Shown: positions 4,575-62,252 of the stretch, in pieces
Position numbering within the stretch: position 1 is the first letter of the stretch
How the letters are laid out: every line of letters begins with the position of its first letter
Origin: an uncultured Candidatus Saccharibacteria bacterium
GTDB lineage: Bacteria; Patescibacteriota; Minisyncoccia; UBA6257; GWB1-50-10
Direction of reading: 5' to 3'
Length of the DNA stretch: 64,000 nucleotides
Assembly: GCA_964356375.1 (NCBI GenBank)
Contig: CAYHGT010000001.1
Location: 9,221-73,220 of the forward strand
Notes under the pieces: generated by a model
What the model saw: the letters and a program-made list of their open reading frames with translations, nothing else
Database searches by the model: none
What the model was told of the DNA's origin: nothing
Translations under genes and position numbers: made by a program

Positions 4575-4680
4575 CTTTACCGAGCACTCAGCATCAAAAA
4601 ATGACATTTTTCGTCCGTTTTCAAGCACGAGCGATTTTTCAAATAATATGAACAGTCGCGTTGAGTGCTCGGTGCTTGAA
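4575..4680. promoter_or_regulatory. Conserved inverted-repeat element, copy 1, in the pilB-pilC intergenic region: CTTTACCGAGCACTCA ... TGAGTGCTCGGTGCTTGAAT
   Basis: Perfect 12-bp inverted repeat ACCGAGCACTCA (4579-4590) / TGAGTGCTCGGT (4663-4674) with a 72-nt spacer. The arms share CTTTACCGAGCAC and GTGCTCGGTGCTYGAWT with copy 2 at 8745-8855. Confidence 0.45.
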
Positions 4681-8744: not shown

Positions 8745-8855
8745 CTTTACCGAGCACATAAATTAACACGCAAAGCATTAATCAATTCTCTTATTTATTT
8801 CCGATGAAAAAGAAAAATTATAAACCAAAGTTTTCAATTTATGTGCTCGGTGCTC
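8745..8855. promoter_or_regulatory. Conserved inverted-repeat element, copy 2, spanning the promoter, RBS, start codon and first leader codons of the third pilin-LamG gene
   Basis: Perfect 15-bp inverted repeat ACCGAGCACATAAAT (8749-8763) / ATTTATGTGCTCGGT (8837-8851). The start codon at 8804 lies inside the loop. The flanks CTTTACCGAGCAC and GTGCTCGGTGCTCGATT match copy 1. Confidence 0.45.
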
Positions 8856-25375: not shown

Positions 25376-25528
25376 TGAATCCCGTTAGAGTTTTACACAT
25401 TAACAACAAACAAGAGGGATGAATCCCGTTAGAAAATTACAAACAATGTTTTTAAGTAAATACAAAGTTAATAACGCTTATATTATTAGTCGAAAAACAA
25501 AGACCTTAATTTTCTAACGGGATGAATC
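25376..25528 (+). promoter_or_regulatory. Repeat/hairpin element between rpsF and ssb: two direct copies of ATGAATCCCGTTAGA and one inverted copy that contains the ssb start codon
   Basis: Copy a at 25376-25397, copy b at 25419-25440, inverted copy c at 25507-25528. b and c can pair over 20/22 bp with a 66-nt loop. The ssb ATG (25522) lies inside arm c. Confidence 0.45.
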
Positions 25529-30198: not shown

Positions 30199-30224
30199 CG
30201 GATAGATTGGACTCTTTTTAACAA

Positions 30225-30510
30225 AAAACGGAACCGCGGGGACTTCGGTGGAAATTGAACATTGTTCGCATGCAACATTGCTCACTCCTTGGAACCCAGC
30301 GGTTCCTTGTGCCACGTCCCGCCGTTGGCGGGGCGACCCCCTTCTTTGTTCGATTTCCACAACTGGGTGTGACTCTTTTTAATAAAAACTCGCCGTCGCT
30401 CGTTTTCATTAAAAACCGGGGCTCACTGTGTGGCGGCGCTCGCCACACAACGCTGCGCCCTTCGAGTCCCAACGCGAGATGAGTAGTCGTCTCGCTCCTC
30501 AGGCAATCAA
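30225..30510. ncRNA. GC-rich ~290-nt non-coding region with several perfect hairpins; candidate structured RNA of unknown class
   Basis: GGAACCGC (30230-30237) pairs with GCGGTTCC (30299-30306). CCCGCC-GTTG-GGCGGG is at 30317-30333. TGTGTGGCG-GCGCT-CGCCACACA is at 30428-30450. The ORFs in the track here are low complexity. No tmRNA, SRP or RNase P signatures were found by eye. Confidence 0.25.
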
Positions 30511-30536
30511 AAAAGCGCTTTCGCGCTTTTTTTATG
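30511..30536. terminator. Bidirectional rho-independent terminator (AAAAAGCGC-TTTC-GCGCTTTTTTT)
   Basis: The perfect GCGC hairpin is flanked by an A-run and a T-run. It would terminate the minus-strand tRNA-Leu transcript and plus-strand readthrough. Confidence 0.65.
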
Positions 30537-30891: not shown

Positions 30892-30960
30892 CGTGCGCGC
30901 CTACCTTCGGTAGGCAGGTATACCAGTGGAGTTTATCCGCCGCAGGCGGGCCACTCAGGC
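30892..30960 (-). other. Partial tRNA-Leu-like fragment (acceptor 5' strand + D-arm + anticodon-stem 5' strand) with two inserted GC hairpins, abutting the GIY-YIG start
   Basis: Revcomp GCCTGAGTGGC[CCGCCTGCGGCGGATAAACTCCA]CTGGTATAC[CTGCCTACCGAAGGTAGG]CGCGCACG. Its parts align to GCCTGAGTGGC-GGAA-CTGGTATAC-GCGCACG of the intact tRNA 270 bp away. Confidence 0.5.
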
Positions 30961-31018
30961 TTATTTTCAATTTCTATGCACATTGAGAATGCCATAGAAA
31001 TACGATAGAGTAAAGAGA

Positions 31019-32005: not shown

Positions 32006-32463
32006 TACCACATTTCTACAGTAATATTATTGCAACTGGTTCTCATCACATTGAACTATATGATGGGTGTGTGAGGTATCGGCCGGTACTCTCACGTATC
32101 AGGATTGTGGCGAGGTATGATGTTGGGCTAGCGTATACGTTTTTAAAACAGAGGTAGGTTGTGTGGACGACTGACAACGCAATATTTTCGGATTTCAAGT
32201 TGTTCTTTCTTTAATTATTTTCACTTGAAATCATACGAATGCGTAGTATCAGTGGTTCACAACACCCCTCTGTTTTATTACGTCTAGAGAGGAGCGAAAT
32301 AAAAACGTATTCGTTTTCATTTAGTCCGAACGACGACGGAACAAAAGTATTGAATCACGCGGGTTGCCCAACGATTCAATACTTTTTATTTTGTCTAGAA
32401 TTTTTTGACAAAATGTCGCAACAAGTGCATTCTGTTTTTAGTAACTACCAAAAGGAGGACACT

Positions 32464-58121: not shown

Positions 58122-59234
58122 ATGAAGGATTATTATTCAATTTTAGGAGTCGCACGTGGCGCATCCGAGGACGATATAAAAAAAGCATATCGTAAGCTTG
58201 CGCACCAATTTCATCCAGATAAGGCTGGCGGCAATGAGGCAAAATTTAAAGAGATAAATGAGGCATATCAAGTGCTTTCTAATAAAGATAAGCGCGCACA
58301 ATATGACCGTTTTGGCCATGTGGCAGATGGCGCGGATCAGGGCCCGATACCTGGTTGGGAGGGCTTTCAAGGGTTCGGCGGTCAGGGTGGACAGTGGAAT
58401 GTGAATTTTGGCGAGGATATTGGAGACCTCGGTGATATTTTTGAAACATTTTTTGGTGGCGGTGCTGGAGGTGGTAGGGCACAGAAACCCGCGTATAAAC
58501 GTGGAGCAAATATTGAAGCACACGAACGAATCTCGCTTGAGGAGGTATTTAGCGGTGTCACGCGCACGCTTAGATTTGAAACGTATGTAGCGTGTCCTCA
58601 TTGCAAGGGGTTGGGGTATGAAAAAAGCAAAGGTACATCACAATGTGCGAAGTGCAATGGTCGGGGAGAGACGCGCGAAGAACGCAGAACGGTGTTTGGT
58701 AGTTTTGTACAAGCAAAAGCGTGTGCAGATTGTCGCGGTAAGGGCGAGGTGCCAAATGAGAAGTGCCATGAGTGCAATGGTGTGGGAAGAAAAGTGAGTA
58801 CGCGCGAAGTTGATGTAGAAATCGCAAGAGGCATTGAGGACGGTCAGGTGATTAAGATCGCGGGGATGGGTGAGGCGGGAGAGCTTGCGAGTGGCACGGG
58901 CGACCTCTATGTAGTTGTGCGCGTAAAACCACATGCGCAGTTTGAACGTCGCAAGGACGACCTTACAACAGAAAAAGAAATCAAGGTGACGGACGCGCTT
59001 TTAGAAAAAGAAATTGAGATGGTGGATATTAATGGTGCGCGTTATACAATTCAGATTCCCGCGGGATTTAACTTGAATGAGTCACTTAAGATCACGGGGC
59101 GAGGTATGCCAAAGTTTGGTTTGTTTGGCGCCTACTCGCGTGGTAACTTATATGTTCGCTTGAACGCAAAACTTCCAAAATCACTCTCACACAAAGCCAA
59201 AAAACTTTTGGATGATTTGGACAAGGAGCTGTAG
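58122..59234 (+). CDS. dnaJ: Chaperone DnaJ
   Basis: J-domain with HPD, a Gly-rich linker, and four CxxCxGxG zinc-finger repeats. Confidence 0.9.
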
Positions 59235-59426
59235 GGAGATGGCTCTCTTCTTGCCTTTCGGAACCAGAATATTTTTCTGTTGAAAAATTCCTGCCTACCG
59301 GCAGGCAGGTCTTCCCCCTCAGCCACCTTCGTGGCTTGTGGGATGTTCCTCAAGGCAAGAAGAGCGCCAAGCGTGGAGTGAGGGGTGAAGAGGGTGAGGC
59401 TCGCTTCAACAGAAATTTTATAATAC

Positions 59427-59455
59427 TTGCAAACGAGCGAGTGCCATCCTATACT
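59427..59455 (+). promoter_or_regulatory. Sigma-70-like promoter (TTGCAA-N17-TATACT) upstream of the small two-gene module
   Basis: Read directly; flanked by short GC hairpins. Confidence 0.4.
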
Positions 59456-59479
59456 CTGATTAGTTCCAAAGGAGATAAA

Positions 59480-59779
59480 ATGAGTTTAGAATCTCTTGAG
59501 AGGGCATTAGTTGATAAGTCCATTTCCGATGAAGAGTTTTTTGACCTTTTATGGAAATATTGTATTGACCACGATGTAGAAGTTGAGATGTCAAAGTGGG
59601 GTTATGATTCCTCAATTGATTCCCTAGATACTCGAAATCAGTTCGGGGTACGGATGGTAAGCGAGCGCCCCAATATTGTAGCGATTCATAGTAAGCACCG
59701 TTTGGAAGAGCTCTGGCATCGTTGTGGATTCAAAAACGATATTTTTCAAAAGGAGGTATGCGATGGGAAACATGTGTAG
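59480..59779 (+). CDS. Hypothetical small protein (99 aa), first gene of a toxin-antitoxin-like pair
   Basis: The SD AAAGGAG upstream of ATG 59480 defines the start inside the track ORF 59336. No motif was recognised. Confidence 0.4.
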   Translation: MSLESLERALVDKSISDEEFFDLLWKYCIDHDVEVEMSKWGYDSSIDSLDTRNQFGVRMVSERPNIVAIHSKHRLEELWHRCGFKNDIFQKEVCDGKHV

Positions 59780-59977
59780 AGTTACACTGAATCTTCCACA
59801 AGAACTTTTAGACCGAGTGAAGGCAAGGGCAAAAAAGAAGAGCTTACAGCAACGGACATGTTCCGAAGAGCGCTCGAAATGGACCTATTCCTTACAAAAG
59901 AAGAGGATGCTGGCTCCAAGCTATTACTCAAGAGATCTAATAAGAAAAAAATGGTCGAACTTATTCGACCGTGGTAA
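59763..59977 (+). pseudogene. Ribbon-helix-helix (CopG/Arc/MetJ-like) DNA-binding protein gene interrupted by a frameshift at an A6 run
   Basis: SD AAGGAGG then ATG. MGNMCRVTLNLPQELLDRVKARAKK, then an A6 run (59831-59836). The sequence continues in another frame as ELTATDMFRRALEMDLFLTKEEDAGSKLLLKRSNKKKMVELIRPW. One extra A would give an intact RHH protein of about 71 aa. Confidence 0.45.
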
Positions 59978-60003
59978 TAAGCTCAACTGAACCTGATATT
60001 CCA

Positions 60004-60028
60004 CCCCCCGCATTTGCGGGGCTTTTTA
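60004..60028 (+). terminator. Rho-independent terminator
   Basis: CCCCCGC-ATTT-GCGGGG followed by CTTTTT. Confidence 0.7.
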
Positions 60029-60072
60029 AATACCAGGAAACCCCGCAGGAACTGCGTGGAGGAGGTCATTAT

Positions 60073-60284
60073 TGACTCCATTGTAACGTCGGAGTTGACT
60101 TTCACACGGGATTCGCTATTATATACAGGCAATCCGTAGAAAGTAGGCATCCCGAAAAAGGGAATAAGCTTGCCCGTCCGTAGTTCGCCAAAGGCGAACG
60201 AAGGAGGGTCCTACCGAGGAGTAGCCCAAGTTTGGGCAAATCTTTCTGCGGCAAAGGTCGCGGTTTTTTGTAGGATAAACTGAA
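60073..60284 (+). promoter_or_regulatory. rplJ promoter module (tandem TTGACT + TATTAT) followed by a ~180-nt structured leader; candidate L10 autoregulatory leader
   Basis: TTGACT 60073-60078 and 60095-60100; a 16-nt spacer; TATTAT 60117-60122. This is the same architecture as the groES promoter. A long untranslated leader precedes rplJ, as in known L10 leaders. Confidence 0.35.
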
Positions 60285-60783: not shown

Positions 60784-61149
60784 ATGGAAAAATTTAACGA
60801 TATTATCACGAAAGTTGAATCAATGTCCGTATTGGAACTCTCGGAGCTTGTAAAGGCTTTGGAGGAAAAATTCGGAGTATCAGCAGCCGCGATGGCGTCA
60901 GCAGGACCTGCGGCGGGAGGCGCAGCAGCTGAAGAGAAGACCGCGTGGGATGTAATGCTCACGAGCAGTGGCGAACAGAAAATCAACGTCATCAAGATTG
61001 TGAAAGAAGCGACGGGCCTCGGCTTGAAAGAAGCGAAGGACCTCGTGGACGGCGCACCGAAGGAGGTGAAGAAAGGATTGAAGAAAGAAGAGGCAGAAGA
61101 GTTGAAGAAGAAACTCGAAGAAGCCGGCGCAGTAGTGGAGTTGAAATAA
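60784..61149 (+). CDS. rplL: 50S ribosomal protein L7/L12
   Basis: An Ala/Gly-rich hinge; the C-terminal domain reads ...[28 protein letters not shown]... Confidence 0.92.
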
Positions 61150-61159
61150 TCCACATCAA

Positions 61160-61190
61160 AACACCCCCGCGTTGCGGGGGTGTTTTGTAT
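61160..61190 (+). terminator. Strong rho-independent terminator after rplL
   Basis: AACACCCCCGC-GTT-GCGGGGGTGTT followed by TTGTATTT. Confidence 0.8.
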
Positions 61191-61335
61191 TTCTGTTCTC
61201 GCTCGTTTTCTCCGCCACCGGATGTCGCTTTGCTCCTGCGGCAAAGCGCATCGCTACCCTCTCGGCGAAAAAATCCTTCGGATGCCAAGCTTTTTCACCT
61301 CCGAGAGTTGTCGGAAAAAACGAGCGAGAACAGAA
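61191..61335. repeat. 145-bp element bounded by 19-bp perfect terminal inverted repeats (MITE-like, or a structured small RNA) upstream of tRNA-Val
   Basis: TTCTGTTCTCGCTCGTTTT (61191-61209) and AAAACGAGCGAGAACAGAA (61317-61335). Nested internal hairpins GCTTTGC/GCAAAGC (61227-61247) and CTCTCGG/CCGAGAG (61257-61304). Confidence 0.45.
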
Positions 61336-61417
61336 ATGAATGGTGATTGGGTGAAGCCAAGCAGATAAGAAAGACACAATTGCCTTTTTGCACTCCGACT
61401 GCTATAAATATTCCTAT

Positions 61418-61494
61418 GGGCAATTAGCTCAGCTGGTTAGAGCGTTGCATTCACATTGCAAAGGTCACTGGTTCGAGTCCAGTATTGCCCACCA
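61418..61494 (+). tRNA. tRNA-Val (anticodon CAC), CCA encoded
   Basis: GGGCAAT TA GCTC AGCTGGTTA GAGC G TTGCA TTCACAT TGCAA AGGTC ACTGG TTCGAGT CCAGT ATTGCCC A CCA. All stems pair. Confidence 0.85.
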
Positions 61495-61495
61495 C

Positions 61496-61590
61496 TTCGA
61501 CTCGTAAGGCCTCGCTCAGTGCGGGCACCAGGAGTCAGCGTGCGAGGCGAAGCGCCCTGAGCGAACGACAGTGAGTCGAATGGCCACTTT
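61496..61590 (+). other. Structured ~95-nt trailer immediately 3' of tRNA-Val (long imperfect hairpin)
   Basis: TTCGACTC (61496-61503) pairs with GAGTCGAA (61580-61587). CTCGCTCAG pairs with CTGAGCGAA. Internal GGGC/GCCC pairing. Confidence 0.3.
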
Positions 61591-61628
61591 GAGATAGGTT
61601 CGGAGTCCGAGGAGCTATAATAGTTTAT

Positions 61629-62252
61629 ATGAAAAATATTATCTTTGATTGGTCTGGTGTAGTAAGGGATACTGTTACGGGTCAACTCTGGATTGTTAAC
61701 AAAATATTTGAAAAATATAATGTTAGCAAAATAGGCCTAGAGGAATTCAGAGAAAATTGGAAACAGCCACCCGCTTTTTTTTATCAAAAATATTTACCTG
61801 AAGGTTATAGCGAAGAGGAGCGAGTCAAATTTTTTTCAGGAATTCAACTAGATAAAGACTGCCCGAAATCCGCCCCATTTTCGGAAGTGGTAGAACTCAT
61901 ATGCAAATGTAAGGAAAGTGGTTATTTTCTTGCTGTCGTAAGTTCCGATTTCCCAGAGACATTACTTCCTGAGGTAAAAGAGTATGGACTGGAAAATATT
62001 TTTAATGAAATAGTTACCGATGCAGACGATAAATTAGAAGCTGTTCAAAGAATAATCGAAGAGAATGATTTAGATCCGCAAAATACATTTTTTGTCGGGG
62101 ATAGTAATCATGAGATAGATGTGGCCAAGAAAGTAGGAATCAGAAGCGTTGCAGTTACCTGGGGTTTCACTAGCGAGCAAAAATTAAGATCAAGAAATCC
62201 GGATTACGTTACTCATAATCCTCACGAACTAGAGAGTGTGATTTTTACTTAA
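61629..62252 (+). CDS. HAD-superfamily hydrolase (phosphatase-like), AT-rich gene
   Basis: Motif I IIFDWSGVV; motif IV FVGDSNHEIDVAKKVG; 207 aa. Its base composition is visibly more AT-rich than the flanking genes. Confidence 0.55.
   Translation: MKNIIFDWSGVVRDTVTGQLWIVNKIFEKYNVSKIGLEEFRENWKQPPAFFYQKYLPEGYSEEERVKFFSGIQLDKDCPKSAPFSEVVELICKCKESGYFLAVVSSDFPETLLPEVKEYGLENIFNEIVTDADDKLEAVQRIIEENDLDPQNTFFVGDSNHEIDVAKKVGIRSVAVTWGFTSEQKLRSRNPDYVTHNPHELESVIFT

Follow-up and report, generated by a model that had tools for sequence, protein, structure and literature searches.

A 149-bp palindromic element behind the rplL terminator of an uncultured Patescibacteriota bacterium

A stretch of 64,000 nucleotides from an uncultured Candidatus Saccharibacteria bacterium (contig CAYHGT010000001.1, positions 9,221 to 73,220 of the forward strand) was analysed and is called the window below. 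Between the intrinsic terminator of rplL and a tRNA-Val gene the window carries a 149-bp module, element A (61189-61337). Element A is a real and very stable palindrome without coding potential or an Rfam family, and it is an accessory, lineage-specific insert. The explanation that we favour, and hold tentatively, is that A may be a low-copy palindromic insertion module, similar to a MITE (miniature inverted-repeat transposable element) or to ERIC, which would be kept under selection for its folded single-stranded form.

Structure and genomic setting of element A

The original prediction described a 145-bp unit at 61191-61335 with perfect 19-bp terminal inverted repeats and nested internal hairpins. 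The repeats were confirmed. The 19-mer TTCTGTTCTCGCTCGTTTT matched the window exactly twice, at 61191-61209 on the plus strand and at 61317-61335 on the minus strand, against 0.02 matches expected from dinucleotide shuffles; none of 100 shuffles reached two. The perfect inverted repeat is in fact 21 bp long (61189-61209 and 61317-61337) and extends to 29 nt at 93% identity, giving a left arm at 61189-61217 and a right arm at 61309-61337. The unit is thus a compact, delimited palindrome as predicted, with a size of 149 bp and not 145 bp. Two further stems are nested within it, again as predicted. Internal hairpin 1 (61221-61252) has the form GATG-T-CGCTTTGC ... GCAAAGCG-CATC, with an 8-bp core that is listed as a repeat. 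Internal hairpin 2 (61259-61307) pairs CTCTCGG with CCGAGAG around GAAAAA/TTTTTC and a small apical hairpin.

On either strand A is predicted to fold into a three-way junction that bears two hairpins. The predicted minimum free energy (MFE) was -70.6 kcal/mol for the plus strand and -80.4 kcal/mol for the minus strand. RNA fold z-scores were -8.5 (plus) and -9.0 (minus), and none of 200 shuffles folded as well. Folding with DNA parameters gave z-scores of -8.7 and -9.8, respectively.

The position between the rplL terminator and tRNA-Val was as claimed. The rplL stop is at 61149 and is followed by the intrinsic terminator (61157-61187), with element A starting one base further on. The stem of the terminator is 14 bp long and contains 9 G-C pairs; as an A-run lies upstream and a T-run downstream, it can end transcripts from either direction. 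No U-tract follows the closing stem of A, which is therefore not itself an intrinsic terminator. The 16-nt right flank of A, GAATGGTGATTGGGTG, occupies 61338-61353. A likely tRNA-Val promoter was read by eye on the plus strand at 61380-61408 (TTGCCT, a 17-nt spacer and TATAAA), ending 9 nt before the tRNA-Val(CAC) gene (61418-61494, plus strand); a consensus promoter scan did not list it. The promoter block is 95.7% identical over 61378-61470 in one relative (L120) and 89.7% identical over 61378-61492, in inverted orientation, in another (L103). Since this promoter lies between A and the tRNA, A is outside the tRNA-Val transcript. The genes adjoining A are rplJ, rplL, a HAD hydrolase gene and an Nramp gene, and relatives of their proteins were labelled Taylorbacteria, Liptonbacteria, Jorgensenbacteria or Paceibacterota. 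The window belongs to a Paceibacteria genome from groundwater. The G+C content is 51% in the 479-nt spacer that holds A and about 53% in windows over A, compared to 44.7% for the whole 64 kb.

Distribution at the rplL locus

Relatives were gathered by exact-protein look-up of close RplL variants and fell into eight kinds of neighbourhood. One kind (L108, L112 and L113, from Logan runs SRR254905xx) has 92.6% DNA identity to the window, carries an identical rplL terminator and has A at the same place. Its BLAST-level homology with the window extends up to 61353, which is 16 nt beyond the repeat, and gives way to patchy similarity with indels; weak residual similarity was seen in L108 up to about 61382. 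Downstream of A a type I restriction-modification methylase gene stands where the window has tRNA-Val and the HAD gene. The tRNA-proximal site noted in the original prediction is therefore true of the window and incidental to the element, since in the 92.6% relative A stays with rplL and the restriction-modification gene, not tRNA-Val, comes next.

Element A was missing from L103-L107, which are metagenome-assembled genomes with about 80% DNA identity to the window. These have 48 bp between rplL and a convergent ORF (open reading frame), and their tRNA-Val is inverted and lies beside the Nramp gene. It was also missing from several relatives with an RplL protein 93-95% identical to that of the window (L114, L115, L118 and L119). 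The terminator is followed by an unrelated ORF in L118 and L119. L114 has a foreign rplL 3' end with a G+C-rich hairpin, the old 3' end being left as a remnant before the terminator, and its positions 480-680 show that recombination has scarred a gene for a ribosomal protein. In L115 part of the tRNA-Val 3' end (22 nt) is duplicated and is followed by about 150 nt and an inverted tRNA-Val, which is a classic integration scar. In two more relatives of the 93-95% group, L116 and L120, the spacer between the rplL terminator and the tRNA-Val promoter or gene holds a different module, element B, in place of A. A clean empty site flanked by identical sequence could not be reconstructed from L120, L116 or L118, where the short shared words AGCCAAG and ATGGTGAT stand in different order and the alignment is ambiguous.

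The tRNA-Val gene was found to be a rearrangement hot spot when the window was compared with L014-L017, L103 and L115. Several assemblies end within the gene, L103 has it in inverted orientation and its 3' end is partly duplicated in L115. The HAD hydrolase gene beside it (61627-62245) was found at 84-91% DNA identity in unrelated neighbourhoods, once beside a serine recombinase gene. It therefore moves as a single-gene unit and is unfit as a synteny anchor. Within 61616-61631 a TATAAT box ends 8 nt before the HAD ATG, which suggests a leaderless or nearly leaderless mRNA.

Element B, a second module of the same build

Element B (59240-59369) is a 130-bp module with a 25-nt closing stem and three hairpins, starting 5 nt after the dnaJ stop. 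Its homologues at L116:884-993 and L120:922-1031 occupy the spacer that A occupies in the window. Over the three copies B measures 110-130 nt and has two to three hairpins. A and B have the same build and no common sequence.

In the window B lies at the left edge of a segment of about 860 bp (59231-60094) between dnaJ and the rplJ leader. The segment is made up of B, a terminator at about 60003-60030 and two small ORFs (59480-59779 and 59763-59990), for which Pfam gave no significant family. Neither the 92.6% relative (L111) nor the 80% relative (L103) has this segment between dnaJ and rplJ, which makes it an insertion in the window lineage. As B stands at two different loci in related genomes, modules of such build move.

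Among the three copies of B, with 39 predicted pairs, three compensatory double substitutions and no broken pairs were found. This indicates that the base-pairing of B is under selection. One 20-nt hairpin was precisely deleted among the copies. When the window and 96 loci were scanned with a covariance model built for B, only the three known copies came up.

Constraint on element A and the strand signal

Between the window and the 92.6% relative, A differs at 11 of 149 positions (7.4%), ten of the substitutions being transitions, and the 16-nt right flank is identical at all 16 positions. The four-fold sites of rplJ and rplL differ at 26 of 123 positions (21%; Fisher p = 0.0012 compared to A). 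The few bases that separate the rplL stop from the terminator are scrambled and contain a 5-nt indel, and after 61353 only a patchy alignment with indels was obtained. Slow change in A and the 16 nt amid scrambled spacers marks a conserved island within a fast-evolving spacer. A evolves about three times more slowly than the four-fold sites, unlike a dead selfish insert.

When a Watson-Crick pair undergoes a transition, one strand is left with G.U and the opposite strand with A.C. Six of the 10 affected pairs in A were kept on the minus strand compared to two of eight on the plus strand. The z-scores of A in the 92.6% relative were -2.4 (plus) and -4.8 (minus). Those of B were -7.8 and -9.1 in the window, and -7.6 and -10.1 in one and -6.5 and -9.9 in the other of its two further copies. 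The minus strand, antisense to rplL and dnaJ, thus folded better in all five A and B sequences. The non-Watson-Crick positions of the B closing stem are A.C on the plus strand and G.U on the minus strand, and G.U appeared only in the minus-strand folds. The minus-strand MFE structure made up more than half of the ensemble for B in L116 and L120. Read along the minus strand, A, and B in L116 and L120, are followed by the bidirectional rplL terminator as a separate fold domain (A plus terminator z = -10.8). The strand signal is consistent, not decisive, and as a predicted property it most likely points to a folded single strand antisense to rplL and dnaJ.

Coding capacity and known RNA families

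The original prediction judged the two overlapping ORFs of A implausible, and the protein searches agree. An exact look-up in a collection of 15 billion proteins found neither ORF, and six-frame pseudo-proteins of A and B had no match among 5.8 billion clusters at E<=1.

An assignment to a known RNA family had been considered as an outcome of an Rfam search. At gathering score only the two tRNAs of the whole window passed, and no family was assigned to A. At E<=10 around A only sub-threshold matches to Phe_leader, Leu_leader and sX6 were found, the best being Phe_leader on the minus strand with 47.4 bits compared to a gathering score of 55. These matches merely reflect a long stem with a terminator.

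A 6S-like regulatory RNA had also been proposed. 6S RNA resembles A in a long closing helix formed by its 5' and 3' ends and in a length of roughly 150-200 nt. The 6S-like reading is not supported, as A folds into a three-way junction and lacks the order typical of 6S RNA, in which a large central bubble lies between closing stem and terminal stem. No promoter was found for A, and no covariance-model match to 6S RNA (RF00013 and relatives) was found at gathering score or at E<=10 around A. A is lineage-restricted, whereas 6S RNA is expected to be a conserved housekeeping RNA.

Other candidates were also rejected. Hammerhead, twister and other ribozymes had no Rfam match and no core motifs, a group IIC intron remnant had no domain V match, a retron had no reverse transcriptase gene nearby, and TGT...ACA termini, as of a Tn7-like end, were absent. 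A third element was considered in the GC-rich spacer that follows tRNA-Val (61496-61590), and the fold there was not significant (z = -0.6).

Copy number

The MITE-like nature claimed for A in the original prediction implies further copies, and none were found. A second copy was absent from the 64-kb window and from about 10 kb more of the same contig, the latter taken from a contig carrying the same DNA from Hainich H52 well groundwater (ENA ERZ1292616). In 402 kb of loci from relatives only the orthologue was found. Among the matches listed in a metagenome scan anchored on RplL, all at 74% identity or less, none carried A. The exact 19-mer was searched in one genome per species (GTDB representatives, among which the source species of the window is not included) and gave five single-arm matches in unrelated taxa, compared to an estimated 4 or so expected. 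Pattern scans of viral contigs and BLASTN searches of plasmids and phages did not find A. A shared no sequence with B or with other hairpins of the window, and the short words at 59431-59441 (an 11-mer) and 30396-30407 (a 12-mer) were at chance level.

Weighing the explanations

The explanation favoured here joins an insertion history to a function. In a narrow lineage of Paceibacteria, A would have entered the short spacer that directly follows the rplL terminator, and would now be low- or single-copy and be kept from decay by selection. Its working form would be a folded single strand, most likely the one antisense to rplL and dnaJ, which gave the better fold in each of the five sequences of A and B and on which the non-Watson-Crick positions are G.U, compared to A.C on the sense strand. 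The likeliest role would be that of a stable RNA structure. The RNA might come from transcription on the tRNA-Val side that ends at the bidirectional rplL terminator, or from rplL read-through, and the structure might act as a transcript end or as an insulator between the rplJL operon and the variable tRNA-Val region.

Several results weigh against this explanation. Mobility was seen for B and not for A, and the two share no sequence. No second copy of A was found in any of the data searched, though family D, a repeat with three copies in about 66 kb described below, was easy to see; as that repeat was readily detected in the same sequence, the negative for A is not blindness of the search. 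Target-site duplication was absent, the flanks reading ...TTTTGT | A ... T | GAATGG, and the sole candidate, AT/AT, is palindromic and so indistinguishable from an extension of the repeat. No insertion sequence (IS) with ends matching A was found in the window or in the collections, where the large ones were searched for exact matches only. Only two variants of A are available. They show no compensatory changes and five one-sided changes in the closing stem, so that structural selection on A itself is not demonstrated. With two sequences, a recent exchange between two lineages could also give the low divergence. The pooled strand count for A and B of 8 to 2 (about p = 0.05 one-sided, an estimate) is only suggestive, and composition explains part of the energy gap, since the minus strand keeps an advantage of about 5-7 kcal/mol when shuffled. 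No promoter for A was found on either strand by consensus scan and inspection.

The claim of a MITE-like element therefore stands in part. A has terminal inverted repeats (21 bp perfect, 29 nt at 93%), its 149 bp fall within the small size of about 50-500 bp, it has no coding capacity, it is intergenic, and its presence or absence is polymorphic at orthologous sites across the rplL relatives. A second copy and a target-site duplication, two defining features of a MITE, were not found, nor was a parent IS, and A, being unique in all data searched, is not a demonstrated multi-copy MITE. A classic multi-copy MITE with its other copies beyond the 64-kb window is very improbable and ranks last among the explanations considered. 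In its favour, the window probably covers only a modest share of the genome: the source contig measures 121.7 kb by itself, and a total size of 0.6-1 Mb is assumed for Paceibacteria. Such copies were absent from the additional contig sequence and the loci of relatives, the 19-mer was at chance level in species genomes, no miscalled ORFs from other copies appeared among the 5.8 billion protein clusters, and divergence at the orthologous site was below neutral.

The explanations overlap. Behind the insertion module we rank a free-standing minus-strand small RNA (sRNA) gene, which is unlikely but has the best claim among the rivals; a plus-strand RNA structure follows as somewhat less likely again, a recombination site is improbable, and the plain MITE comes last. 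The sRNA would be roughly 190-210 nt long, starting between A and the tRNA-Val promoter and ending at the rplL terminator, with an analogous product of B in L116 and L120. The better minus-strand folds of all A and B sequences, their G.U pairs and the two independent fold domains formed by A and the terminator agree with such a gene, as do the best sub-threshold Rfam models, which consist of a long stem and a terminator on the minus strand. The constraint on A, the compensatory changes in B and the raised G+C content of the spacer point the same way. Against it, no minus-strand promoter was recognisable in the window, L108, L116 or L120, the sequence upstream on the minus strand is not conserved between contexts, and B in the window runs into antisense dnaJ with no minus-strand terminator after it. 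A also lacks covariation and an Rfam family. A may be a regulatory RNA of some kind, the alternative raised in the original prediction; constraint and strand asymmetry speak for this, and the missing promoter and the absence of covariation in A speak against it.

A cis-acting RNA structure on the plus strand would lie in rplJL read-through transcripts (dnaK-dnaJ transcripts for B), and would block 3' exonucleases or form a second barrier insulating the tRNA-Val promoter, like REP and ERIC in enterobacterial mRNAs. A and the three B copies share one orientation, and each directly follows the 3' end of a plus-strand gene with high expression. The window copy of B, with no terminator between it and the dnaJ stop 5 nt away, must be in the dnaJ mRNA. 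The plus-strand fold of A is very stable (z = -8.5), and RNA structures derived from MITEs that affect expression are documented in passages of PMC10969869 and PMC2229807. A itself, however, lies behind a strong terminator, so that plus-strand transcription should be low, and it has no U-tract of its own with which to terminate. The L108 substitutions break six of the eight affected plus-strand pairs and the plus-strand z-score drops to -2.4.

A role at the DNA level, as a recombination site or scar at the edge of a variable island where a recombinase or nuclease exchanges genes beside tRNA-Val, would explain why clear homology with the 92.6% relative ends 16 nt past A with different genes beyond. 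It would also fit the location of B within 10 nt of the left edge of the 860-bp insertion and the hot-spot character of the region (the tRNA-Val inversion in L103, the duplicate in L115, the foreign rplL end in L114 and the mobile HAD gene). The scars that were seen are direct repeats of tRNA 3' ends and not palindromes, no recombinase gene is adjacent in the window, and the attC cores RYYYAAC / GTTRRRY were absent from the arms of A and B on inspection. The weak similarity to about 61382 in L108 means that 61353 may be the end of constraint and not a breakpoint.

A broader and rather doubtful proposal is that A and B are two members of an undescribed class in the Candidate Phyla Radiation (CPR) or Paceibacteria. 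Its members would be interchangeable, sequence-unrelated modules of 110-150 nt with a closing stem and two to three hairpins, located downstream of gene ends or terminators and selected for the fold of the antisense strand. If this were true, the modules could work as antisense-strand RNAs, or as single-stranded DNA sites marking the borders of exchangeable single-gene units.

Other features of the window

Family D is defined by two boxes in inverted orientation, TTACCGAGCAC ... GTGCTCGGTGC; they are separated by about 80 nt of A+T-rich sequence that is not conserved. Copies were found at 4579-4673 and 8749-8851 and, about 318 nt past the window end and upstream of mraZ, at L006:5690-5786. All three copies lie directly upstream of plus-strand genes, and the 9-mer occurs four times compared to 0.27 expected. 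The family could be a repeat with short terminal inverted repeats or a paired operator site.

A G+C-rich, very stable structured region of about 330 nt (30200-30535; MFE -131 kcal/mol) ends in a bidirectional terminator that it has in common with tRNA-Leu. No Rfam match was found for it at a cutoff as loose as E<=1, and the region may represent an RNA gene that is still unassigned. About 300 nt away, the 5' half of tRNA-Leu is partly duplicated (30925-30962).

Directly upstream of rplJ, positions 60116-60279 matched the leader of ribosomal protein L10 below threshold (26 bits compared to a gathering score of 44) and are probably a divergent genuine L10 leader. In the 92.6% relative (L109:147-395, L110 and L111) an ORF for an 82-aa GIY-YIG nuclease (Pfam E = 7e-14) is inserted just upstream of rplJ, and the window has none.

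Two A+T-rich intergenic repeats with long stems were seen at 32132-32313 (nested 14- and 20-nt arms) and 25418-25528 (36-nt arms). The former had no meaningful Rfam match and the latter had none in the whole-window scan at gathering score. At about 2005-2070 an intergenic tandem array of the 7-nt unit GGTATAC, in about 6-7 copies, precedes an ORF at 2114.

Comparison with known systems

The kind of element represented by A is already known. As far as sequence comparison and literature go, A itself and the alternation of two modules in one CPR spacer appear undescribed, and nothing specific was found on MITEs or structured RNAs of the CPR. Good descriptions of small palindromic repeats exist for Proteobacteria and Firmicutes, and none was found for the reduced genomes of the CPR. 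The finding on A is modest and local. Alternation of A and B in a single spacer of 40-60 nt, compensatory change in B and slow change in A together suggest host use, not junk, in a genome with little spare DNA. The antisense-strand signal, if it holds, would imply a specific single-strand mechanism, by RNA or DNA.

Integron attC sites measure 57-141 bp, conserve structure over sequence, fold in a strand-specific way and lie beside exchangeable single-gene units. A may be similar in its conserved structure and strand-specific fold, and it has a neighbourhood of exchangeable single-gene units. The R'' (RYYYAAC) and R' (GTTRRRY) motifs were absent from the arms of A and B on both strands by inspection. 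No integrase gene or cassette array was seen near A, no systematic scan of the window proteins having been made, and the palindrome of A stays on the conserved side of the junction, unlike attC.

REP and REPIN sequences, which are mobilised by RAYT transposases, resemble A in a hairpin selected in one DNA or RNA strand and in an extragenic place after genes. Passages in PMC3733652 describe them as G+C-rich palindromes of 20-40 nt with GTAG/CGTC tags and a high copy number, and propose roles in termination and mRNA stabilisation. A, with 149 bp, has ends of ATTTCTG.../...CAGAAAT without the tags and is single-copy.

The ERIC (or IRU) and YPAL elements of enterobacteria are MITE-like imperfect palindromes of about 127-167 bp and share with A their size, non-coding nature and intergenic place beside transcription units. 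They also share a long stem-loop closed by terminal repeats and a presence that varies between close relatives. An effect on neighbouring transcripts at the RNA level is plausible for them from passages in PMC10969869, PMC3184786 and PMC2229807. ERIC occurs in tens to hundreds of copies with a consensus, whereas A is unique in the data searched and has no sequence similarity to it, and ERIC forms one long hairpin where A has a three-way junction inside.

Correia (CREE), RUP, BOX and SPRITE elements of Neisseria and Streptococcus have terminal inverted repeats and measure 100-160 bp, similar to A. They are multi-copy families, unlike A, which is single-copy as far as seen. Correia and RUP elements have TA duplications and known IS relatives, neither of which was seen for A. 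A low copy number is nevertheless known among bacterial MITEs, which can be single-copy in some strains, as for MITEAba12 with 1-22 copies per genome, and whose transcripts form stable structures able to affect expression (PMC10969869). The Correia, RUP, BOX and SPRITE elements insert near gene ends and terminators and are sometimes clustered or replace one another (PMC10969869, section 3.3), and this replacement resembles the alternation of A and B in one spacer.

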